Source of the DNA: Pseudomonadota bacterium | Lineage (GTDB): Bacteria; Bdellovibrionota; FAC87; UBA2466 | Length of the DNA: 26,336 nucleotides | Direction of reading: 5' to 3' | Assembly (NCBI GenBank): GCA_043718025.1 | Contig: JAYSWN010000132.1 | Span: 1-26,336, forward strand | In this document: piece after piece, positions 3,606 through 22,419 of the stretch | How the letters are laid out: every line of letters begins with the position of its first letter | Position numbering within the stretch: the first letter of the stretch is position 1 | The notes under the pieces: generated by a model | What the model was told of the DNA's origin: nothing | Seen by the model: the letters and a program-made list of their open reading frames with translations, nothing else | The model's database searches: none | Program-made: the position numbers and the translations under genes

Positions 3606-3627
3606 TGAGTTGCACCAGTGTGAAAAA

Positions 3628-6600
3628 ATGAACTTTACGGGAAATGGGCGTAAGCCTTTGGCATTGCTTTGCTTTTTTGCAGGCGCTTTTAACCTGCTGA
3701 CGGCGCACGCCTTCGCTCGAACTTTCATTCCTTGCCGAGCCCTTTTAGAAGCTAACGCCGAAGGGTTAAGTTATCTCCCACCACGCTCAAGTAGCGCTTT
3801 AGAGAACCTGTTTCGCATGGTGATTCTGCCGGTGTTGGACGAAAGCGGCCGCCACGACCACGCCCAGATCAGCGTAAACAACCGAGCCCGAACCCTCACC
3901 ATAAAAAGCCCACTGGGCAGCTACACGATCCGCCTCACCGACAAGCCAACGGAGGCTTACCCGCGGCTGGGTCTGCCCGAAATTTCCATAGCGCCTGAGG
4001 GCTTAAGCTCGGAGATAATCTTTGATACCAAGACGCTCTATCAAGATTTAGAGCGCAGCCAGGGGGTCTTTCGCTCGGCCCTGCGCGCCGATTTTTACCT
4101 GCACCCTCACCTGCGATCGAATGAGAACCGCAGTAAATCCATTCTTTCTCACCCCCAGGGCATTGCATTGGCGGCGTTGATGGAGATGGAGAGCCAAGTA
4201 AAAGGCGGAAACGGTATCAAACGCGGTTTAGTCATGCCGGTGGGAATGGGAAAAACCGTGGTGGCCGCGAAATACGTGGCCGCCGTTGGCGGCTATAACC
4301 AGTCGATGGGCCATGAAGGCTGGAAGAAAAAACCCAAGACACTTTTTGTGGTGCAGAACAACCGCGTGCTCGACCGAGCGGTAGAAACGTTCTCCTCCGA
4401 ACTGGACCTTAAAAATATAGCGCTTATCTACGACGAAGGCGCCACCGCGCCAATCGACCCCGATTGCGAAATGGTGGCGATCACCCGTACCAGCTATTTC
4501 AATCGCATGTCCGAAATTCACCAGTTGATCACCGCCGATCCTGACCAACCATGGGTTATCGTATTCGACGAGGCGCATCACCTGGGCACGGAGGACGGCG
4601 AGTTCGACGACATCACCACCGATCTTCACAAAATAGCGGATGCCCGCCACCGAGTGTTGCTACTCACGCCAACTCCGTGGCATCCCGACGAGCCTCTGAT
4701 TACTGGCTACCTTGGCCAAAATATTCACGGCGCTTTTCTAAACGCCGAAGAGCAGCTTGATCTGCAGAACGGTCGTAAGCTTCCCGAACTCTGCCGACTG
4801 CAATACTACCGCGGCATGCAACGGGGATACCTATCCCCCCTCTACCACCTGAATTTGGTTCGTAACGTGGATGGCATTCCGACCGAAGAACTACTCACCG
4901 CGAGTGTTGCCGACGAAACCACGCGAACGCGCACGCTCACCCGCTACCGCAGCCTTCTTCACGACGTGAGCAAACGCATCAAGAACAATCGGGTTTCGGG
5001 CATGCCTGACCGGGCGGTAATTTACGTGGATTCACAAAGGCGCGCCGACATCTACGCCGCCGAACTGGCTGAGCTCTTAGGTGAAGAGGTTCGTTCTCTG
5101 CACAGCGGCCCCGGTGTCGACCCCGAAACTTTTGCTTGGTTCTCCGATAAAGGAAAGTTCGAAACGCCCGACGACTTGAAGAAACCTAAGTATCTCGTGG
5201 TTGTGGACATGTTCAATGAAGGCGTCGACATTCCTAGGATCAACCTCATCGTGCTTTTACGCCGGTACGGCGAAGACATGGGTGGCTTTCGAAATTTGAT
5301 TCAGCAGTTGGGCCGCGGTAGCCGCAATTTTTCGATCGACTCTTTTTTCAAGCTCCATCTGCGGCTACTTGACTACTCGCTTTACAGCCGTTGGTTACGC
5401 GACGGGCTGGGCCAAATTTCGGTGGAGCCACGCGACTTTCACGGCCAGCGCCTTAACCGGCCGCCCGGATACCTGATGATCGACGATGAAGTGATGGACG
5501 CCCTTCACTTTCAACTCGAGTACCATAAATTATTTCCGCGCGACGGCACTTTTGTTCAAGAGTTTCCCTTTTTTGATCTCGAAGTGTTCAAAGCTCAGTC
5601 GTTACGGAGTTTACATGAGCTGGCCATCAGTTACGCCGTGCCGAAATTTGGAAGCGAATTCGGTGCCAAAAAATTGATGCTTAAGGTTGCGAGTTTTCTT
5701 CCGACGAGTCCCGAAAAATCCAAACTGATCGAACAGCTTGAAGACGATGCCTATTGGGGGTGGAAGGCTAGAGATGGCGTCGAGGCAAAGCAAGGCAAAT
5801 CGGAGAGTGACGCCGCGGTTCAGAGAATCTTTCGCGCGTTGTACCGCATTGCCGCGTTACAGAAACTGACGAACGACGGAAGAGATCTCGAGCTCTCAAA
5901 AATTCATGAAACTTCAGAGCTTGAAGCGCTACTCGATCAGATTGATCCCCAACGCGTGAAATCGCTTACTCAAGTCGAACATAAACTACTCTTTCTCGAT
6001 AAGGATCGGGGGGCGTGGCCCCTAATCGCAAGCGAAGCTAGTGAGCGCCATTTAGGGAGGGTTTCGGATCCAAACGGGCTTAGAATCTTAATCGAGGCCT
6101 TGGCCCACAGCCTGCCAAAATCTCCGGAGCGAACCCAATTACTAAAACGCCTAGATGACAAAGGGGATCTAGCGATAAATTCTGACGACGGTCAGCGACT
6201 AAATAGTAGCGGCTACGCAGAACTTATTGCCGCAAGCCAAGAAGACGCCGTAAGGGTCAGGGGCAGCCTAAACCGCTGTTACCGCGCCCTCTACGCGATT
6301 GCCCTGATTTTGAAGCAAACTCCGGCCGGTGCCGATCTTGATCTAACCGCACTCCACGAACGTGCCGGAATCGAAAAGCTACTCAATCTCCTAGACCTCA
6401 AGCGCACTCGCATTGGAGTGGTCTTCACGCCCGAATTAAAAGACGTGTTTCTGAACGCCGATGGAGGCGGATTGCGAGTCTTTGCCTACTACGCGGCGAA
6501 TCTCGGAGTGTCCGACTTTTCGCGAAATCACGGCAGTACAAAAACTCTGTGGGCGCTGGCCGCGATATTGCCGGATTCGAAAGACCGCACCAACTTGATT

Positions 6601-7209
6601 GTAGATCTTAATGACATGAACAAATGGAAATGGGGGCCAAAAGACGGGGCGCAAATGACCAGCGAAGGATACGAAACCGCCTCGCGCCGTTTTTTCTTGG
6701 GCCTCTGTCGAATTGCGATGGTTCACAACCGCCTCAACCCCCATTTACACATTGACCTGAAAACACTTCACACGCGCGACGAAGCAGAAAAGTTTTATAA
6801 CTACTTGATTCTGGGTTTTGATCTTCCCCGCGCCACCAAGAAAGCCCTGGCCGACTTTTCGACCATCGCCGTTCCCCTTATCGAAGCACGGGCCAGAAGC
6901 TTAGGTATTTCGGCCTACGTTACCAATTACGGCCCCAAACGGATGGTACTGCAATTGGCAAAGCGGCTCGAAGAAAAATCTCCCGGCACGGTGCCACCTA
7001 AAGTTGTCGACGCACTAAATAATGACTTGCTGTGGGGCTGGACAAAGGGGCATGGGCAGATGCTTAAGAGCGGAACCAGCGAACGCTCGTTGCTAACCAC
7101 GTACCGAGGGTTTGCAACCATTGCGTACTTTATTAAGACTGAAGGAATAGAACTCCGGCTCGATGATAGAGACGACATAAACCTATTACTCGATCAGGCT
7201 AAACCTTAA
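3628..7209 (+). CDS. SF2 DEAH-box helicase/ATPase (ResIII-like core) with N-terminal signal-like peptide and four C-terminal repeats
   Basis: Walker A MPVGMGKT (4234-4257), VFDEAHH (DEAH at 4567-4578), motif III LTPTP, motif V VDMFNEGVDIP, motif VI IQQLGRGSR. Start taken at ATG 3628 rather than TTG 3610. Confidence 0.88.
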   Translation: MNFTGNGRKPLALLCFFAGAFNLLTAHAFARTFIPCRALLEANAEGLSYLPPRSSSALENLFRMVILPVLDESGRHDHAQISVNNRARTLTIKSPLGSYTIRLTDKPTEAYPRLGLPEISIAPEGLSSEIIFDTKTLYQDLERSQGVFRSALRADFYLHPHLRSNENRSKSILSHPQGIALAALMEMESQVKGGNGIKRGLVMPVGMGKTVVAAKYVAAVGGYNQSMGHEGWKKKPKTLFVVQNNRVLDRAVETFSSELDLKNIALIYDEGATAPIDPDCEMVAITRTSYFNRMSEIHQLITADPDQPWVIVFDEAHHLGTEDGEFDDITTDLHKIADARHRVLLLTPTPWHPDEPLITGYLGQNIHGAFLNAEEQLDLQNGRKLPELCRLQYYRGMQRGYLSPLYHLNLVRNVDGIPTEELLTASVADETTRTRTLTRYRSLLHDVSKRIKNNRVSGMPDRAVIYVDSQRRADIYAAELAELLGEEVRSLHSGPGVDPETFAWFSDKGKFETPDDLKKPKYLVVVDMFNEGVDIPRINLIVLLRRYGEDMGGFRNLIQQLGRGSRNFSIDSFFKLHLRLLDYSLYSRWLRDGLGQISVEPRDFHGQRLNRPPGYLMIDDEVMDALHFQLEYHKLFPRDGTFVQEFPFFDLEVFKAQSLRSLHELAISYAVPKFGSEFGAKKLMLKVASFLPTSPEKSKLIEQLEDDAYWGWKARDGVEAKQGKSESDAAVQRIFRALYRIAALQKLTNDGRDLELSKIHETSELEALLDQIDPQRVKSLTQVEHKLLFLDKDRGAWPLIASEASERHLGRVSDPNGLRILIEALAHSLPKSPERTQLLKRLDDKGDLAINSDDGQRLNSSGYAELIAASQEDAVRVRGSLNRCYRALYAIALILKQTPAGADLDLTALHERAGIEKLLNLLDLKRTRIGVVFTPELKDVFLNADGGGLRVFAYYAANLGVSDFSRNHGSTKTLWALAAILPDSKDRTNLIVDLNDMNKWKWGPKDGAQMTSEGYETASRRFFLGLCRIAMVHNRLNPHLHIDLKTLHTRDEAEKFYNYLILGFDLPRATKKALADFSTIAVPLIEARARSLGISAYVTNYGPKRMVLQLAKRLEEKSPGTVPPKVVDALNNDLLWGWTKGHGQMLKSGTSERSLLTTYRGFATIAYFIKTEGIELRLDDRDDINLLLDQAKP
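5587..7206 (+). repeat. Four degenerate ~120-140 aa protein repeats in the helicase C-terminus
   Basis: Recurring pattern G..K/R.(L/M)..(L/V)A..LP.S.(E/D)(R/K)..L...L.D...W.W...DG......R.(Y/F)RAL..IA......L.L..LH......LL, starting near 5587, 5992, 6448 and 6856. Confidence 0.7.
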
Positions 7210-12910: not shown

Positions 12911-14503
12911 TCAACTCTCGCTTTCATTTAAGCCTAGGGATCGCCTTTTGCCCGTTCGGGAGGGGACAATAAGGCCAAACTTCGCCGGATTGATAATCAT
13001 TGAAACCAAGCTGCCGGAGGTTCCCAGAACGAAAAACAGCGCCGGAAAACCGCCTAAATAAGAGAGTGTCTTAATTCCCTCGAGCCCGCTCAAGCACAAC
13101 ATAAATAGCGCCAAAGCCCCAACCGTTCCACCCCACACTAATTTCAACCACAGCGGTGGTTCGTGACTGTCGGCAGAAATTCCGTGCGAACTCATTCCCG
13201 CCATCGACAGCGTATTAGAATCGGCCGCCGTCACGTAAGAAATAAAAGCGGTGATTAAGAAGGTCGGGATCACGATGCTTGCAAACGGAAATTTATCAAA
13301 CACCCGATAAACCAGCATCTCGGGTCCTGCGGAGCTTAGAATTTGCGCGAGATCGAGAGTCCCTAAGCTTTGCATCGCCAAAGCCGTGCCGCCAAAAATA
13401 CCCATCCACACGTAGGAAAATACGGCAGGAATGAGCAGATTGACGAGCAGAAAGCTGCGCACCGTGTAACCCACCCCCACTCTTCCCAAAAACGCCGCCG
13501 AAACCGGAGCCCAAGCCAGCCACACCGACCAATAAAAAACCGTCCAACTCCTTGGCCAAGGGTCGTCGACGGCAAACGAGGTAAAAAGGCTGCTGGAAAC
13601 AAAGTGGCGCACAAAGTGAGAACTGGCCGAGACCGCAAGCGCCCAGGTTTCCGCAATGGGACCGTAGTAGACCACCACGCCGGCGATAACGAAGAAGAAA
13701 AGCGTGTTGATATTGCTCAACCAGGTGATTCCACGGTGCACTCCCGATAGGGCCGAAAGCAAAAATGCCACGACGATTGAAACTCCGATCAAAATCCAGC
13801 AAGTGGGGCTGCTCTTAATTCCGTAGAGGTAATTTAAACCGCCCGCCAAGGTGAGCACTCCCGTGGCCAGCGAAGCCGCCATTCCCGCCACTAAGGCGAA
13901 GAGACAAAGGCTATCGATGGCCGGAGAAAATCTAGCGGCTACTCTTCTACCGATAAGGGGCGCCAGGCAGGACGAAAGGCTGAATGGAAGATTGAGATTA
14001 TGAAATGCCAGCGCAAAAACCAGAGCGGGGAGAGCGTATATCGCGCACGGAACAAACGACCAATGTAAAAAAAGCGACGACAACGCAAATTGAGCCGCCG
14101 GCCCGGAGCCCGGAACCAGCCCGAGCGAACGGGGCGGTTGGGTGAGGTGATAAATGGGCTCGGCCATTCCCCAAAATAAAATACCCACCGCCGTGGTGGT
14201 ACACAGCGAGATGGTGCACCACGAAACTGGCGACAAAAATCTTTTGGCCCCGGGGCCACCGATCACCACCCGTCCAAGGGGCGAAAAAAAGGCCAGAGTA
14301 CAGGCGAATAAAAAAAACAACGCCCCCCCCGCAAAAAGCGGCGACAATTTTCCCAAGGCCCAGGTATTTGCCCCGCTCACCACTTTTACAAAATGGGGCC
14401 CATCGAGGGACGCCGCCACCAAGGCCACTAGAATCAATAGAAAGGCGGGCCAGAAGACCCAAACCCGAAGATTGTGTTTCAAAGGAGCACCCACTACCAG
14501 CAA
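12911..14503 (-). CDS. BCCT-family (betaine/choline/carnitine) transporter
   Basis: About 12 hydrophobic segments; motifs GILFWGMAEPIYH, FLHWSF, GITWLSNIN, WTVFYWSVWLAWAP...FLGRVGVGYTVRSF, WMGIFGGTA and YVTAADS. TTG start abuts the upstream stop. Confidence 0.93.
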   Translation of the reverse strand: MLVVGAPLKHNLRVWVFWPAFLLILVALVAASLDGPHFVKVVSGANTWALGKLSPLFAGGALFFLFACTLAFFSPLGRVVIGGPGAKRFLSPVSWCTISLCTTTAVGILFWGMAEPIYHLTQPPRSLGLVPGSGPAAQFALSSLFLHWSFVPCAIYALPALVFALAFHNLNLPFSLSSCLAPLIGRRVAARFSPAIDSLCLFALVAGMAASLATGVLTLAGGLNYLYGIKSSPTCWILIGVSIVVAFLLSALSGVHRGITWLSNINTLFFFVIAGVVVYYGPIAETWALAVSASSHFVRHFVSSSLFTSFAVDDPWPRSWTVFYWSVWLAWAPVSAAFLGRVGVGYTVRSFLLVNLLIPAVFSYVWMGIFGGTALAMQSLGTLDLAQILSSAGPEMLVYRVFDKFPFASIVIPTFLITAFISYVTAADSNTLSMAGMSSHGISADSHEPPLWLKLVWGGTVGALALFMLCLSGLEGIKTLSYLGGFPALFFVLGTSGSLVSMIINPAKFGLIVPSRTGKRRSLGLNESES

Positions 14504-15691
14504 TTAAAAAAGACGTTGTTCAAAAGGGAAATGCGCCAAAAGCCGCGGTCCCTGTTTGGTAACTAAAATCTGTTCTTCAAGTTTGACCCCATCCCGTTTC
14601 CCTTTTTTACCAGCGTAATACTCCACGCTAAGCACCATGTTTTCTTCAATCACCCCATGCGGACGAAGTCCGTTTTGCTCGGGGTAGGGAAAAAAGGGAG
14701 GCTCATCATCAAGCCCCGCCCCATGAATCATGCAAGAATAGGCCTGTTCCCTATACTCTGGTCGCGACCGTGGAGCCTTGTGCAGAATCTCTTCGTAAGA
14801 CGTGCCCACTCGGCAGAGGTCGATCGTGCGTTGGATAAAATCATATGCAATCTGAAATGCCTCTTTTTGATCGGCATTGGCCTTCTCCCCGCAGAGGAAG
14901 GTACGTGAAATATCGCACAGGTACCCTTCGGGGCCCAGCATGTCGGTGTCAATGCCGACCAGATCCCCAGTTTCTACTTTGCGTTCCCCCGCCTCGTGAA
15001 ACCAGGGATTAGTCTTGTCGCCAGAAACCAACAGGCGGGTGCTGCAGTGCTCGCCACCTAACGCCAGCATCTGCCCCCAAAAAACTCCCATCAACTCATT
15101 TTCAGAAATTCCCGGTCGAATCGCTTTTTCGAGCGCGGCTAATGCGCTATCCGCTACGGCTCCGGATTGCTCTAGCAAAACGATTTCATCGGCGGTCTTC
15201 ACCCGTTTGGCCTCTTCCAGAGGCTCATCCGCGTCGCAGACGCGAAGCCCAGCCGCTTGCAGGCCAGAGTAGCCGTAGTGGTCGACAATATCGATTCCCA
15301 CTTTGGAACCTTGAGTTCCCCATTCCCGCATTAAAATTTGAATCTCTTCGGCCCACCGCTTCGCCGCTTCGGGCGCAGTGTGGTTGGCAAAGCGGAACTG
15401 CCACGGCGCAGCCGCTCGACTGCCCGGCCAAATTTGCTGCGCCCGAAAAAGGGCCTTTCCGTATTCAAAAACCACCGGCGCGCCGCTCGGGGGAACTACC
15501 GCGTAGCGGGCTAAATTCATCGCCGTCCAAATCGGCATCACCGAAGTTCCGGTGGCGTAACGAATGTTGATCGGACTATTTAGCACCAAGGCCCCAATGT
15601 CGCGTTGGCGCAGCTCGCGTTGGAGTTTTTCCAACCGCTCTTGTCGCAGGCGGACCGGGTCCCATTGATAGCCTTCGCCGAGTCGGCTCAT
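14504..15691 (-). CDS. M24 (Xaa-Pro peptidase fold) metalloenzyme, DddP (DMSP lyase)-like
   Basis: PINIRYATGT..MPIWT, TRLLVSGDKTNPWFHE, DTDMLG...CDISRT, YSCMIHGAGLDDEP, VEYYAG and GVKLEEQ. The metal ligands D/D/H/E/E and the NPWF.E and DTD motifs match DddP as remembered. Confidence 0.8.
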   Translation of the reverse strand: MSRLGEGYQWDPVRLRQERLEKLQRELRQRDIGALVLNSPINIRYATGTSVMPIWTAMNLARYAVVPPSGAPVVFEYGKALFRAQQIWPGSRAAAPWQFRFANHTAPEAAKRWAEEIQILMREWGTQGSKVGIDIVDHYGYSGLQAAGLRVCDADEPLEEAKRVKTADEIVLLEQSGAVADSALAALEKAIRPGISENELMGVFWGQMLALGGEHCSTRLLVSGDKTNPWFHEAGERKVETGDLVGIDTDMLGPEGYLCDISRTFLCGEKANADQKEAFQIAYDFIQRTIDLCRVGTSYEEILHKAPRSRPEYREQAYSCMIHGAGLDDEPPFFPYPEQNGLRPHGVIEENMVLSVEYYAGKKGKRDGVKLEEQILVTKQGPRLLAHFPFEQRLF

Positions 15692-16929
15692 CCACTAGCC
15701 CCCGAAGACCTTATCTGTATCTCCGCAAGCGTACGGGCCATTTCGTTGCGCATGATTGAAAGCCCCTCGTTGATGCCCATGCCGGGCTTCACCAGCAGGG
15801 CGTCAGCCCGTGCCGCCAAGGCCACGTGCACCGAGAGCATCGACGAAAGATCAGTTTCGATGCAACTGCCCCCCAAGAGTGCCTTCACGTCTCTAGATTT
15901 ACACATAGCCACTGCGGCTAACGAAGCGTGGAGAGAACCCAGAGTGGGCATCTTGATATGAACCCAATCCACCGCCTGAGCGTCCAAAAAGGCGGTGATG
16001 TCTTCGACGCTACTCGCCCACTCATCGACGGCCACCAGCACCGCCACCCCTTGTTCTCTCAGAGAACGACGCAGTTGACCCAACCGCGCCACCTGTTGAT
16101 CGCGTGAAGCCTCAAGGTAGGGGCTTTCCACCCGAACCTCATGCTCACCGCAGATGGCCTTCAATTTTTTTAGAAATGCGATCGCCGGTTCCTCTGCGTT
16201 TTTGAAAACCTTTCCCAGCGCCCCGTGCAGATCAAAGTGCAATGCAGGTCGATAGTCACGCGAGCCTAGCGTTTCAATGCGGCGGCAAAGCCAGTCGGCG
16301 TAATCGAGCAAAACTTCGCCATGTTGCCCAAACTGGCTCGAAACATTCTCCACTTGAGTGTGCGGCAGAACCGAAAGACGATTCATAATCATTTTATCGG
16401 CGCCGCCACGCCGGTCGTTACCGCACGACCCATGAAGCCGCACCGGTTGCGAAGAAAGTGGCACGCCCAATTCGGCGCAAAGAATCTCGGTGGGGGTGAC
16501 CCCGGCCCGCAGGGCAACTGCCTGTAAGAAGGCTTGGCTTAAACCGTAGCGCCAACTGGCCGGCAACGTGGCATCGCTACAAAATTCTGCACTATTCAAA
16601 AAGGAAGAGAAGCTGACTCCGCGCAAAGCCGGCGCGTAGGCATCCCGAATCCGGGCTTCAAGTTCAGCGGCACGCAACACCGGCTCGCGTCCCGACTTTC
16701 CGGCGTAAGACACTCCCACGCAATCGCCCCAGGCCACTTCGCCGCTTTCCAACTGCAAACCAACTGATACCGTCTCTGCCACTTCGCGGGCGTAATGAAA
16801 ACCGGCACTCACCGCAGACAGTTGCCAACGCTCACTCTCGGCGCACGGCTCGTCCACCAACGCTAAAACGTCTTCGCAGTAATAAGCGCCCTGACCGCGG
16901 GCCGTAATTATTTTGGAGATACGAATCAC
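15688..16929 (-). CDS. Methylaspartate ammonia-lyase homolog (enolase superfamily) with divergent substrate pocket
   Basis: GDC...GREP, RYGLSQA, DKMI, LPH, HFD, RVESP, VDEW, IKMP, GGSCIET and KPGMGINEG...NEM align with MAL. Start placed at GTG 16929, 2 nt after the ALDH stop; its TGA overlaps the next ATG. Confidence 0.88.
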   Translation of the reverse strand: MIRISKIITARGQGAYYCEDVLALVDEPCAESERWQLSAVSAGFHYAREVAETVSVGLQLESGEVAWGDCVGVSYAGKSGREPVLRAAELEARIRDAYAPALRGVSFSSFLNSAEFCSDATLPASWRYGLSQAFLQAVALRAGVTPTEILCAELGVPLSSQPVRLHGSCGNDRRGGADKMIMNRLSVLPHTQVENVSSQFGQHGEVLLDYADWLCRRIETLGSRDYRPALHFDLHGALGKVFKNAEEPAIAFLKKLKAICGEHEVRVESPYLEASRDQQVARLGQLRRSLREQGVAVLVAVDEWASSVEDITAFLDAQAVDWVHIKMPTLGSLHASLAAVAMCKSRDVKALLGGSCIETDLSSMLSVHVALAARADALLVKPGMGINEGLSIMRNEMARTLAEIQIRSSGASG

Positions 16930-16931
16930 GA

Positions 16932-18416
16932 TTAGTACTTGACCCAAATTGATTTAATTCTTGTGTAAGAATCTAGTGAATGAATCGCCATCTCCTTGCC
17001 CCATCCGCTCTGTTTAAACCCACCGAATGGCGCGGCAAAATCGTAACAACCGTAGTGATTGATAAACACCTGACCGGCGTCTAATTCATTTGCCACCCGG
17101 TGAGCACGCGAAAGATCAGACGTATAGACCCCCGCCGCCAAGCCGTACTCAGAGTCATTGGCTAACTGCAGCGCCTCTCGCTCGCTATTAAAGCGAAAAA
17201 CCGAAAGCACAGGACCAAAAATTTCGTCGGTTGCGATCTTCATTTTGGGTTTTACATCAATAAAAATGGCCGGCCGAATAAAATAGCCTTTGCCATTTTC
17301 TCCCGCCACATCGCGGTTTCCGCCCACGGCTAGCGTAGCGCCCTCGCGCTGCCCGATTTCCACGTAGCTTAAGATTTTGTTGAAATGCGCTTCGTGGCAC
17401 TGCGGCCCCTGTTCCACGAGGGGGTCGAAGGGGTTGCCGCACACTGTTTTTTTTGCTTTCTCAACCAGCCGTTCCACCACTTGATTGTGAATGGAATCTT
17501 CGAGCAAAAGGCGAGTTGGCTCAGTGCACTTTTCCCCTTTGTGACTAAACATGGCGGTAAAGGCACGATCGATTACCGTATCGAGGTTGGGCGCATCGGC
17601 AAAAATTATGTTGGGCGACTTGCCCCCCAGTTCGAGCGCCACCGATTTCAAGTTGGAACGACCTGAACTCTCCACAATCTTTTTTCCGATTGGGGTAGAA
17701 CCGGTAAACGAAATTTTTGCCACTTGGGGATGAAGGGCGAGCGCCTCGCCGCATTCGTTGCCGCCGGTAACCAGGTTAAAGACCCCGGCGGGTAAAGTCT
17801 GATCTTCATCGATTAATTCCGCCAGCCGCAGCAAAGTAAGTGAGGTGAACGGCGAGGGCTTAACCACCACCGAATTTCCCATCGCCAAGGCCGGAGCTAT
17901 TTTCCAACTGGCCAAGAGCAGAGGAAAATTCCACGGCACAATCAAAGCGCAGACGCCGACCGGTTCGCGCCGCGTAAAATTGAGAAAACCGGAATCGACC
18001 GGCGAAGTTTCGCCGTAAATTTTATCAATCCAACCTGCATAATAATCAAAAACATCGGCCGATTCGGGCAAGTCATCGAAGAAGGCTTCGCGGTACGTTT
18101 TACCGTTATCTAACGACTCAAGCGTCGCCAGTTCAGCCTGGTGCTTGCGAATCAAAGCGCCGATTCGCGCAACGGCCTGGGCGCGCCGACGTCGGGTCCA
18201 GGTTTTCCACTCCCCTTGACCGGCCCTGGTCGCCGCTTGCACCGCCCGATCCACATCACCGGCGCTGGCCTCGGGTATTTCGCACAATCGGGAACCATCG
18301 GTTGGATTCAGTGACAGTGAAGAGGGTAGCCTTGCTTCTTGCCACTTACCGTCGATATAAAGGGCTTTAGGTGAGTTTAACCAGCGCGCGGCCCATTCAA
18401 GAGTTGCGGTTTCCAT
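16932..18416 (-). CDS. NAD(P)+-dependent aldehyde dehydrogenase
   Basis: IVPWNFPL, VVKPS, FTGSTPIG, LELGGKSP, catalytic Cys in FSHKGEKCTEP, EIFGPV and APFGGFKQSGWG. ATG 18416 follows GGAGG. Confidence 0.95.
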   Translation of the reverse strand: METATLEWAARWLNSPKALYIDGKWQEARLPSSLSLNPTDGSRLCEIPEASAGDVDRAVQAATRAGQGEWKTWTRRRRAQAVARIGALIRKHQAELATLESLDNGKTYREAFFDDLPESADVFDYYAGWIDKIYGETSPVDSGFLNFTRREPVGVCALIVPWNFPLLLASWKIAPALAMGNSVVVKPSPFTSLTLLRLAELIDEDQTLPAGVFNLVTGGNECGEALALHPQVAKISFTGSTPIGKKIVESSGRSNLKSVALELGGKSPNIIFADAPNLDTVIDRAFTAMFSHKGEKCTEPTRLLLEDSIHNQVVERLVEKAKKTVCGNPFDPLVEQGPQCHEAHFNKILSYVEIGQREGATLAVGGNRDVAGENGKGYFIRPAIFIDVKPKMKIATDEIFGPVLSVFRFNSEREALQLANDSEYGLAAGVYTSDLSRAHRVANELDAGQVFINHYGCYDFAAPFGGFKQSGWGKEMAIHSLDSYTRIKSIWVKY

Positions 18417-18417
18417 T

Positions 18418-19251
18418 TTAAACCTCCAAAGGTCGCGCTTGCATGCGCCCGTACCGTATTTTTCGTAAATGCTCGCTCGAAACCACCCCGGGGCGGCTGT
18501 CGAAACCAAAGAGACCGATGAGACGGCTGGTGTTCCCTTTTATCTCGGTAACTCGGTGGATCGAATGGCGTCCCTTAAACAACAACAAAGTGCCTGGTTC
18601 GTTGGCTATCTCCACCACGCCCTCACGCGAACCTCGTAAGGTCGCCCTCACCTTTTCATAATTTTCATCGGTTGCGTTACGAATTAACGGAACGTATTCA
18701 AAATTTCCCCCGGCCTCACTGCTGCGAATGGCCAACGACGACACAAAATCGGTTTGATCAAAATGCCAGCGCAAATAATCGCCAGCCTTCATCACCGATA
18801 AGTTGAGAGCGCCCATGGGGTCAGCGTAACGAAATATCTTGGAGAGCCTAAGCACCCGGCCAATGAACAGCATCATCGGATCCCATTCAAAGATTTGGCG
18901 CAGCAGAGAAGTGCGGGGAAACTGATCGTAAGCCACCGCCCCTAATGATGTCGGAGCTTCCATTCTGCGTACGTGATCAGCCGGCAATTCAGGATCGGGC
19001 TGATCTAGATAGGCGTTGCCCATCAGATGATTATGGAAAGCCAATGGCTCGAGACTCACCCCATCGCTCACTAAACTTTCGACGGCCGCGGTGGTAACAA
19101 ATTGCTTTAGTTCACAGGCCCCGTTTTGTTCGAGTTCGGCGCGACAGTGGTCGATGAGCTTCTGCGCCCCCGCAGTTTCTAGGTTTTGAATGGGATACTT
19201 ACTAAGATTAATAATGTCGACGGCGCGCGCCGCCCCCAAGTCTGCCTGCAT
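18418..19251 (-). CDS. Fe(II)/2-oxoglutarate oxygenase of the HalD/BesD-like fold, HxD (hydroxylase-type)
   Basis: ALNLSVM..GDYLRWHFDQTDF, GGNFEYVP.IR, PGTLLLFKGRHSIHRVT and SRLIGL supply the His-X-Asp...His triad and a 2OG-binding Arg; strong RBS GGAGGGG. Confidence 0.78.
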   Translation of the reverse strand: MQADLGAARAVDIINLSKYPIQNLETAGAQKLIDHCRAELEQNGACELKQFVTTAAVESLVSDGVSLEPLAFHNHLMGNAYLDQPDPELPADHVRRMEAPTSLGAVAYDQFPRTSLLRQIFEWDPMMLFIGRVLRLSKIFRYADPMGALNLSVMKAGDYLRWHFDQTDFVSSLAIRSSEAGGNFEYVPLIRNATDENYEKVRATLRGSREGVVEIANEPGTLLLFKGRHSIHRVTEIKGNTSRLIGLFGFDSRPGVVSSEHLRKIRYGRMQARPLEV

Positions 19252-21088: not shown

Positions 21089-21709
21089 ATGAAGCGCGTA
21101 AATGTGTGGCTCTTACTGGTATCGATTTTAACGGTTGGCTTTTCGGCAGCTGGCGAAGAGGCAAAAATCTCCGGTCCGATTCGATTTATAGGCAATGGCT
21201 GTCTGCCATCGTACACAGAGTCAGTGGTGACGGAGGATCGAATGACGGCCTCCTTTCTGTTCAGTAAATTTGCGGTTGAAACTGGAAAATCCATTCATCG
21301 CTTCTTTGAGGCGCGTTGGTGTGAAATTCGAATTCCCCTTACCGTTTCCCCCGGTTACAAAATTCAGGTTCAGGGTTTGGATTATCGCGGATTTAAATCC
21401 ATGGCCCTACACGGCGACCGAACTGCAGCGCTTTTTGAAACGCAAATTTTGAGCCGCGGAGTTCTTAAATCTAGCGGTTTAAATTTGGTGACCGAAAACG
21501 GACCGTTCCGCGACGAATTCTTTTATGAACCAACCAAGAAAGTGACCTCCTTTGCGTGCGGCGGGGCAATGGAACTGAGAGTGCGTACTCAGGTTTCCGC
21601 TTTTTCAAACAGCTGCCGCGCCGGCTCAATGAGTGGAATCGAAATTGATTCGATCGATTTCACTTCGCAAGCCAACGCCGGCGACTTCACTTACGTTCCT
21701 TGTCGCTAA
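21089..21709 (+). CDS. DUF4360-family secreted protein
   Basis: Signal peptide; FIGNGC, SFLFSKFAV, CEIRIPLTVSPGY, DYRGF, CG..MELRVRT, IDSID and terminal C. Confidence 0.82.
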   Translation: MKRVNVWLLLVSILTVGFSAAGEEAKISGPIRFIGNGCLPSYTESVVTEDRMTASFLFSKFAVETGKSIHRFFEARWCEIRIPLTVSPGYKIQVQGLDYRGFKSMALHGDRTAALFETQILSRGVLKSSGLNLVTENGPFRDEFFYEPTKKVTSFACGGAMELRVRTQVSAFSNSCRAGSMSGIEIDSIDFTSQANAGDFTYVPCR

Positions 21710-21739
21710 AAAAAAACGCCCGTACCAAAAGTACAGGCG
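21708..21739 (-). terminator. Intrinsic terminator for the minus-strand DUF4360 gene
   Basis: Minus strand CGCCTGTAC-TTTTG-GTACGGGCG followed by a run of nine T. Confidence 0.75.
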
Positions 21740-21768
21740 CTCCTAAATTCGACTATTCAGACTAAGGG

Positions 21769-22419
21769 TTAGTTATTGCACTTACGCCAAGTCAACTTGT
21801 ACAAAATTGGCGTTTTGGTCGTGAGGTCTAAGCTATCCAAGCTGCTGTTGGATTGATCACCTCGCGAGTTAGAACTGACGTCAAGACTGCTCTTGATAGC
21901 AATCGTGGTGTCTTTTCCACACGGTCCCCAAACCAGGGCGGTCGCTTGCACATCATTTTTACGATAGTACTCACCGCGTAACACCCCGTTTTTGTCGACA
22001 CGAGAGTCTTCAACGGTTGGGTCCGGAAACTGATACTTGAATTGCGGTCCGCGCTTACCAACCAGAAAGTATTCTGCGGACAAGATGGCCGTGGCCCCAC
22101 GAGGAAGAAAGTTAAAACCCCGGAACTCACTGGTGATGATGGAGATACTTAATCCCGCGGGAACCCTTACCGGAATGCGAACGTCACACTTGCGTCGATC
22201 ATTCACTGCATTTTTGTCTGCCTTCACCGCGTACTTGCTAAAGAGAATGCTCAAGCTCTGTTTGTCATCGGTCAGCGCAATTTCGGTATCCTCTTTTGTG
22301 CATCCATCGCCGATAAATTTCGGATCGCCCAGAGTAAGCGCCGGCACTTCGTCTCCGATGGCCGACACCGATCCCAAGGCACAAAGCCCCATGAGTCCGG
22401 AAAGTAGTTTGTTCTTCAT
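21769..22419 (-). CDS. DUF4360-family secreted protein (paralog of 21089..21709)
   Basis: Signal peptide; FIGDGC, SILFSKYAV, RKCDVRIPVRVPAG, EFRGF, VWGPCG, LDSLD and LTWRKC; RBS AAGGGG. Confidence 0.88.
   Translation of the reverse strand: MKNKLLSGLMGLCALGSVSAIGDEVPALTLGDPKFIGDGCTKEDTEIALTDDKQSLSILFSKYAVKADKNAVNDRRKCDVRIPVRVPAGLSISIITSEFRGFNFLPRGATAILSAEYFLVGKRGPQFKYQFPDPTVEDSRVDKNGVLRGEYYRKNDVQATALVWGPCGKDTTIAIKSSLDVSSNSRGDQSNSSLDSLDLTTKTPILYKLTWRKCNN

Follow-up and report, generated by a model that had tools for sequence, protein, structure and literature searches.

What reaction is catalysed by the product of a gene that databases would call methylaspartase? The gene, at 15688..16929 on the minus strand (GTG start, 413 amino acids), lies in the window analysed here, a 26,336-nucleotide stretch of contig JAYSWN010000132.1 (assembly GCA_043718025.1) from a Pseudomonadota bacterium placed by GTDB in the Bdellovibrionota. 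It encodes a lyase of the enolase superfamily that resembles 3-methylaspartate ammonia-lyase (hereafter MAL; EC 4.3.1.2). As a predicted trimethylaspartate trimethylamine-lyase, the enzyme is likely, with a probability of roughly 0.6, to cleave N,N,N-trimethyl-L-aspartate into fumarate and trimethylamine in the last step of the breakdown of N,N,N-trimethylhomoserine (homoserine betaine). The latter is the head group of diacylglyceryl-trimethylhomoserine (DGTS), a common membrane lipid of algae and bacteria.

Active site of the lyase and its branch

The lyase aligns unambiguously with the MAL of Clostridium tetanomorphum (CtMAL, 1KCZ; E 1.7e-67) and with CaMAL (1KKO; E 8e-76), and it scores 339.9 bits against the family hidden Markov model (HMM) TIGR01502, above the cut-off of 286.15. 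Its predicted structure (pLDDT 92.5) superposes on 1KKO with a TM score of 0.94 and a root-mean-square deviation (rmsd) of 1.8; over 1KCZ, 1KKO and the engineered Q73A variant (3ZVH), TM scores are 0.92-0.94 and identities 33-36%. In CtMAL numbering, with window residues in brackets, the Mg ligands D238 (D233), E273 (E268) and D307 (D302) are kept, as are H194 (H190), the base K331 (K326), R80 (R81), C361 (C356), L384 (L379) and M389 (M384). A preliminary description of the gene, made by eye, had noted the retention of the Mg ligands, His194, Lys331, Cys361 and Leu384, and the alignments to 1KCZ and 1KKO bear this out.

The residue roles used for MAL and, below, for the aspartase AspB come from secondary papers. 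In MAL the amine is contacted by Q73 and Q172 and the C1 carboxylate by T360 and C361; the C4 carboxylate is bound by Mg together with H194 and Q329, and F170, Y356 and L384 form the 3-methyl pocket (PMC7241714, 10.1101/583088). Both amine-binding residues are changed in the window lyase, Q73 to S74 (codon 16710-16708) and Q172 to S168 (codon 16428-16426). In the methyl pocket, F170 is replaced by H166 (codon 16434-16432) and Y356 by L351, with L384 kept. The C1-carboxylate site is preserved as S355/C356, the former through T360>S355, and H324 stands in place of Q329, an enolate-stabilising position in MAL. All six of these replacements had been listed in the preliminary description and are real; L196>Q, Y240>H and N362>I are additional. 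Their weights as evidence for a rebuilt pocket differ. Q172 is present in all 119 canonical MAL loci and in none of the 30 members of the branch described below. The changes at 360 and 329 are weaker, because S occupies position 360 in 59 of 119 canonical Q73/Q172 MALs, which makes T360S non-diagnostic, and H occupies 329 in 12 of 119 otherwise canonical MALs; moreover, CaMAL T360S shows kinetics like those of the wild type (PMC7241714).

The 30 branch members were chosen by the S172/H329 pattern among 120 homologs listed; S172 is found in 30/30. Among features not used for selection, Q196, H240 and L356 occur in 30/30 and S73 in 29/30. The catalytic D238, E273, D307 and K331 are found in 30/30, H194 in 28/30, and S360/C361 are kept in 30/30; position 170 is H or Q across the branch. 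Judged from the sequences, S73, S172, Q196, H240, L356 and I/V362 form the diagnostic set of the branch, and since this set is common to 30 aligned relatives, a fault confined to a single sequence does not explain it. A quick tree of 84 rows, with SH-aLRT as its only support measure, separates the 30 members and 10 further representatives from 21 canonical MALs by a branch with SH-aLRT 93. Within the window's phylum, 17 of 401 genomes have a member of this group, and these genomes come from two families of a single order. The closest named records, which may overlap the counted genomes, bear the titles Bdellovibrionota, Bdellovibrionaceae, Deltaproteobacteria, Pseudomonadota and Vulcanimicrobiota. 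Homologs of the branch carry the MAL name in their source records, and only generic MAL clusters were found in the ESM Atlas.

Other remodelled MAL-like proteins were also observed. A second branch of about 460 amino acids (P0016, P0019, P0024 and others; loci L008, L010, L011, L015 and L084-L097), largely from Anaerolineae/Chloroflexota records, has E or A at 73, H170, Q172, F356 and mostly M384; in this context, neither glutamate mutase nor the oxygenase was near any of 34 non-canonical MAL loci. In further branches (P0258, P0269, P0271, P0273, P0275, P0278, P0279, P0285 and P0289), position 18 is K, R, I, Y or T and position 73 is I, A, T or V, and these residues suggest that the family may hold more undiscovered reactions.

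An operon with exchangeable enzymes

Five genes of the window lie head to tail on the minus strand, with gaps of 0-2 nucleotides or an overlap. They encode a putative Fe(II)/2-oxoglutarate (Fe/2OG) oxygenase (18418..19251), an aldehyde dehydrogenase (ALDH; 16932..18416), the MAL-like lyase, an M24-family DddP-like protein (14504..15691) and an importer of the betaine/carnitine/choline (BCCT) family (12911..14503). The BCCT neighbour mentioned in the preliminary description is thus present, two genes downstream of the lyase. Similar sets surround the branch in 16 loci, namely 15 extended regions and the window; the genomes are kin and the counts are not independent. ALDH is found in 15 of these loci, the oxygenase in 14, BCCT in 11, an M24 match in 5 and glutamate mutase in none. 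The missing ALDH and oxygenase cases fall at contig ends, and gene order varies. In L188 and L227, an OpuAC/OsmF-type ATP-binding cassette (ABC) importer occupies the place of BCCT. Among the 119 canonical MAL loci, by comparison, glutamate mutase is nearby in 73, and the oxygenase and BCCT in none. GlmE was not found in the window's genome, which is 92% complete.

The lyase itself can be exchanged. The oxygenase occurs in 23 of the 401 genomes of the phylum, seven of which have no MAL match. Five of these seven have an aspartase-family open reading frame (ORF) of about 390 amino acids, flanked by oxygenase and ALDH; the contig breaks off in the sixth, and nothing but an ABC importer is present in the seventh. 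The five ORFs were the only matches below 1e-150, and none of the five genomes has the MAL variant. Compared with AspB (1J3U), the aspartase variant keeps S140, T141, S318, S319, T187, K324 and N326, and is changed at T101>I, N142>S/A, H188>C, I320>F and M321>F. Over 121 homologs (the 120 top matches listed and a Priestia row), which include proteins of Bacillales, Binataceae and Myxococcota, K324 and T187 are each found in 120, S318 in 121, C188 in 118 and N142 in none. In AspB, T187, M321, K324 and N326 form the alpha-carboxylate pocket, S318 is the base, and H188 and N142 contact the amine (PMC11744663). A natural fusion of the aspartase variant with a BCCT transporter, 852 amino acids long, was found on a Peribacillus R9-11 plasmid (L270:11935-14493), and two alphaproteobacterial matches lack the operon. 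T101 of AspB presumably touches the amine as well. Two unrelated lyase folds thus retain an aspartate-shaped site and lack the hydrogen-bond partners of the amine. We read this pattern of residues as suggesting that the ligand of both is a C4 dicarboxylate with a bulky amine devoid of N-H.

The oxygenase is exchanged too, being replaced by a Zn alcohol dehydrogenase (Zn-ADH) or an aldo-keto reductase in eight lineages, some of them cultured. The same ALDH and the aspartase variant accompany Zn-ADH in genomes G201, G322, G773, G834 and G869 and in Priestia megaterium; Ensifer adhaerens and Vibrio pelagius have them together with an aldo-keto reductase. G201 and G322 also have a betaine-type ABC importer, assigned by ORF resemblance, and show no oxygenase match. 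The lyase-ALDH-ADH set of P. megaterium recurs in 3 of 261 genomes sampled within a Bacillales order. Since three enzyme families occupy one slot ahead of ALDH, the first step is probably the oxidation of a primary alcohol to an aldehyde, which would then be converted into an acid.

The oxygenase (Pfam HalD, E 6.8e-8) has the BesD/HalD-like fold, its best matches being the halogenases HalB, HalD and BesD and the lysine hydroxylase Hydrox (Z 20.2-21.5, rmsd 3.4-3.8, 222-240 residues aligned), at only 13-14% identity. It differs from the halogenases in its His-x-Asp...His triad (H163, D165 and H232), which is invariant in 64/64 sequences and indicates the hydroxylase type; its WHFD aligns with WHWG of HalB and WHWD of the hydroxylase, and the halogenase His-x-Gly/Ala is absent. 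It is predicted to oxidise C4 of a homoserine unit to the aldehyde. Its homologs on plasmids (33-37%) sit in other contexts, and three distant matches are likewise uninformative. The ALDH (Pfam Aldedh), whose ATG lies 1 nucleotide past the oxygenase stop with GGAGG upstream, is the constant gene of the operon and belongs to a distinct subfamily with the motif [HQ]KGEKC around the catalytic Cys in the operon loci compared. Among family HMMs it is nearest to betaine aldehyde dehydrogenase, under all cut-offs shown. The BCCT protein (PF02028, E 1.3e-116; start codon uncertain) has BetP, choline and trimethylamine transporters, DddT and CaiT among its PDB matches.

The start of the M24 gene overlaps the lyase stop (ATGA). 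Its product scores 252.9 bits against the DddP equivalog model NF043017, below the cut-off of 600; its best PDB match is 4RZY (E 1.9e-56), with which its metal-site motifs align. Four carriers were identified (the window, a fragment in L179, L180 and L186), and the protein is regarded as accessory, not being conserved in most loci. On a Pseudomonas plasmid (L194:7944-10181), homologs of the oxygenase (35%) and of the M24 protein (37%) occur together, without MAL.

Elsewhere in the window, a carbon-nitrogen hydrolase-like fragment (by eye) and an agmatine deiminase (PF04371) at 1-1514 probably belong to ordinary polyamine metabolism. A protein of 1199 amino acids at 3610-7209 combines ResIII and Helicase_C domains with a long C-terminal region that lacks a Pfam match, and two convergent DUF4360 genes lie at 21089-22419.

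A proposed route and its alternatives

If two oxidations turn an alcohol into an N-substituted aspartate, that alcohol is an N-substituted homoserine, and the BCCT or OpuAC/OsmF importers together with the lyase-BCCT fusion make N,N,N-trimethylhomoserine the simplest natural candidate. In the proposed route, homoserine betaine would be imported by the BCCT protein, as its family suggests, and hydroxylated at C4 by the oxygenase. The resulting gem-diol, or hemiacetal if a glyceryl ether is attached, would collapse to trimethylaspartate semialdehyde, which ALDH would oxidise to trimethylaspartate. In the lyase, from the roles assigned in MAL, the C4 carboxylate could be held by Mg and H194/H329 and the C1 carboxylate by S360/C361 as K331 takes the C3 proton. 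Trimethylamine would then depart from C2, with no proton needed, into the space opened by Q73S/Q172S, and fumarate would enter the tricarboxylic acid cycle. The loss of methyl-pocket residues fits fumarate rather than mesaconate. Collectively, the lyase substrate probably keeps both aspartate carboxylates and is the trimethylammonium compound delivered by the two upstream enzymes. The earlier proposal, which tied a natural lyase acting on N-substituted compounds to BCCT, gains support from conserved gene context and from an aspartase-type substitute without amine contacts; acrylate and mesaconate, which had been suggested as partners for amine addition, are unlikely, because the substrate probably retains both carboxylates.

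Fe/2OG hydroxylases can cut ethers through a hemiacetal. A broader proposal, tentative and rated somewhat below even odds, is that the operon represents the missing catabolism of homoserine betaine and the DGTS head group. On this view, O-dealkylation by the oxygenase would also split the DGTS glyceryl ether, and the enolase and aspartase folds would each have given rise on their own to a trimethylaspartate trimethylamine-lyase. Bdellovibrionota-like predators, Bacillales, Vibrio and rhizobia would then have a new way of forming trimethylamine without radicals. Of the two claims, that for free homoserine betaine is safer and that for ether cleavage bolder. In Vibrio and Priestia, orthologous genes for an FGGY kinase, a short-chain dehydrogenase/reductase (SDR) and a flavoprotein resembling alkyl-dihydroxyacetone-phosphate synthase (E 1e-46) adjoin the dehydrogenase-type operon (L268:14173-17887, L269:1-4078), a module that would suit a glyceryl ether; a dihydroxyacetone kinase lies beside the Ensifer operon. 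This flavoprotein matches 30 plasmid records, 25 of them listed, among which the lyase searches match only those of Vibrio and Priestia, and one of four oxygenase-type genomes has a full-length paralog of it at 31%. The module, which we take to resemble the ygc genes of E. coli, is possibly a general route of glyceryl-ether cleavage.

Two side observations concern related genes. The Bacillales versions of the operon (L278:6665-14537, L279:5292-13257) add a second ALDH, an Fe alcohol dehydrogenase and an enzyme of the mandelate-racemase/muconate-lactonizing-enzyme family, which could be a betaine racemase. On contig C66 of the window's genome (L266:1489-2604), a DUF3419/BtaA-like gene lies between dehydrogenase-like and AMP-binding-like ORFs (by eye), an unrelated cluster that does not evidently serve DGTS synthesis.

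Several observations weigh against the trimethylhomoserine route. Arg83 of HalB binds the substrate carboxylate (PMC10041140), and the equivalent position of the oxygenase is T101 (directly in the Hydrox alignment, and in the HalB alignment by counting back two residues from its start); the oxygenase therefore does not bind an amino acid in the BesD way, and an attempt to assign its substrate by comparison with BesD-like residues failed. Ensifer and Priestia have importers outside the betaine families, of the peptide-type ABC kind and of the major facilitator superfamily respectively, and no BCCT is nearby in G139, G143 and G167. The flavoprotein module was not found in any of the five other ADH-type genomes tested, where the search gave only 26-34% paralogs, so that the prediction that such genomes need it failed in 5/5. 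The lyase match is split over two frames in G167 and holds a TAG in G195, and G203 has the oxygenase with an ABC importer and neither ALDH nor lyase on its 7.8 kb contig. Ordinary aspartases of the phylum have Q at 188 in 23/23, with T101 and N142 all kept, so that less weight falls on the change at 188 than on those at N142 and T101. No aromatic cage for the trimethylammonium group was identified in the MAL-like lyase; a search of the window's genome gave no MttB, one weak match resembling flavin-containing monooxygenases and no clear trimethylamine-using enzyme; and the route leaves the role of the M24 gene unexplained.

One alternative is the same chemistry on another substituent, with the lyase freeing the corresponding amine from the acid derived from an N,N-dimethyl, N-methyl or larger N-alkyl homoserine-type alcohol, a sulfonium analogue or the head group of diacylglyceryl-hydroxymethyl-trimethyl-beta-alanine (DGTA). 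The exchanges of enzymes fix the carbon skeleton and the lost amine hydrogen bonds but say nothing of how many methyl groups there are, CtMAL Q73A takes linear and cycloalkyl amines (PMC7586795), and some carriers have the non-betaine importers mentioned above. Such a substituent is nevertheless rather unlikely, holding perhaps a minor share of the probability, since BCCT and OpuAC/OsmF importers dominate and trimethylhomoserine is the N-substituted homoserine reported to be abundant in nature (10.1101/2021.03.10.434842, PMC9892843); for DGTA, chemical reasoning indicates that the oxidised head group would be a malonate rather than an aspartate skeleton. A monocarboxylic onium acid as the lyase substrate, such as beta-alanine betaine or dimethylsulfoniopropionate (DMSP) giving acrylate, or carnitine undergoing dehydration, oxygenase and ALDH then having its precursor or product as their substrate, would account for the translational coupling of the DddP-like M24 gene to the lyase, for a BCCT family that includes DMSP and carnitine carriers, and for the loss of Q172 from the MAL hydrogen-bond network. 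It is considered improbable, because S360/C361 are kept in 30/30, the M24 gene is found in only 5 of 16 loci, and the substitute aspartase keeps T187, K324 and N326, residues whose mutation was needed before acrylate was accepted (PMC11744663).

Slightly less credit still is given to an oxygenase that cleaves a C4-onium or C4-amine bond, for example in S-methylmethionine, 4-dimethylsulfonio-2-hydroxybutyrate (DMSHB) or a diaminobutyrate derivative, to yield aspartate or malate semialdehyde, leaving the lyase to remove ammonia or water. The fold of the oxygenase is indeed closest to enzymes that oxidise amino-acid side chains; however, the alcohol dehydrogenases and aldo-keto reductases in the same slot are incapable of such cleavage, and one would not expect a lyase of plain aspartate to shed the residues that contact the amine in two separate folds. 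That the window lyase is simply a drifted 3-methylaspartate ammonia-lyase is very improbable and the least credible of these alternatives. Its score above the TIGR01502 equivalog cut-off, its intact fold and catalytic core and the names of its homologs speak for an ordinary MAL, but the invariant Q172 of canonical loci is lost from the whole branch, the methyl-pocket residues F170 and Y356 are changed, the branch is separate in the tree, and glutamate mutase is neither nearby nor found in the window's genome. The protein would work as MAL does, but it departs from EC 4.3.1.2 in amine pocket, methyl pocket and pathway and on these grounds should not be filed as MAL.

Relation to known systems and significance

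The trimethylaspartate lyase proposed here would share its predicted chemistry, the elimination of an amine from the aspartate skeleton to give fumarate, with AspB of Bacillus sp. YM55-1 and with the ethylenediaminedisuccinate (EDDS) lyase, and an AspB-like protein takes the place of MAL in the same operon. The fold of both enzymes is unrelated to that of the window lyase, and the substitute in the operon lacks T101, N142 and H188. EDDS lyase is already known to act in nature on an N-substituted aspartate, and the passages covered of the review that says so do not list a quaternary amine among the leaving groups of these lyases (PMC7586795). The window branch differs from MAL not only in its pocket, but also in that it sits in an oxygenase-ALDH-BCCT operon without glutamate mutase. 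Among other systems, CutC, CntA/B and the DMSP lyases release trimethylamine or dimethyl sulfide from onium compounds, often beside BCCT. CutC and CntA/B form trimethylamine by radical or Rieske-oxygenase chemistry, unlike the polar beta-elimination after two oxidations predicted for the present route.

Searches of an open-access library, outside which most subscription papers lie, listed no account of this MAL branch, of trimethylaspartate or 'aspartate betaine', or of homoserine betaine catabolism. Trimethylated homoserine is the main osmolyte of Trichodesmium and a likely source of trimethylamine, and its metabolic fate 'remains unknown' (10.1101/2021.03.10.434842); of enzymes breaking the DGTS ether, a second report says that they 'have not yet been identified' (PMC9892843). 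For both the fate of trimethylhomoserine and the DGTS ether question, the operon supplies genes by name, a chemical prediction for each step and carriers that are in culture. The proposed function would correct the annotation of the MAL branch and of a widespread aspartase variant (at least 120 matches), and it would add natural C-N lyases with a predicted widened amine pocket as starting points for biocatalysis.

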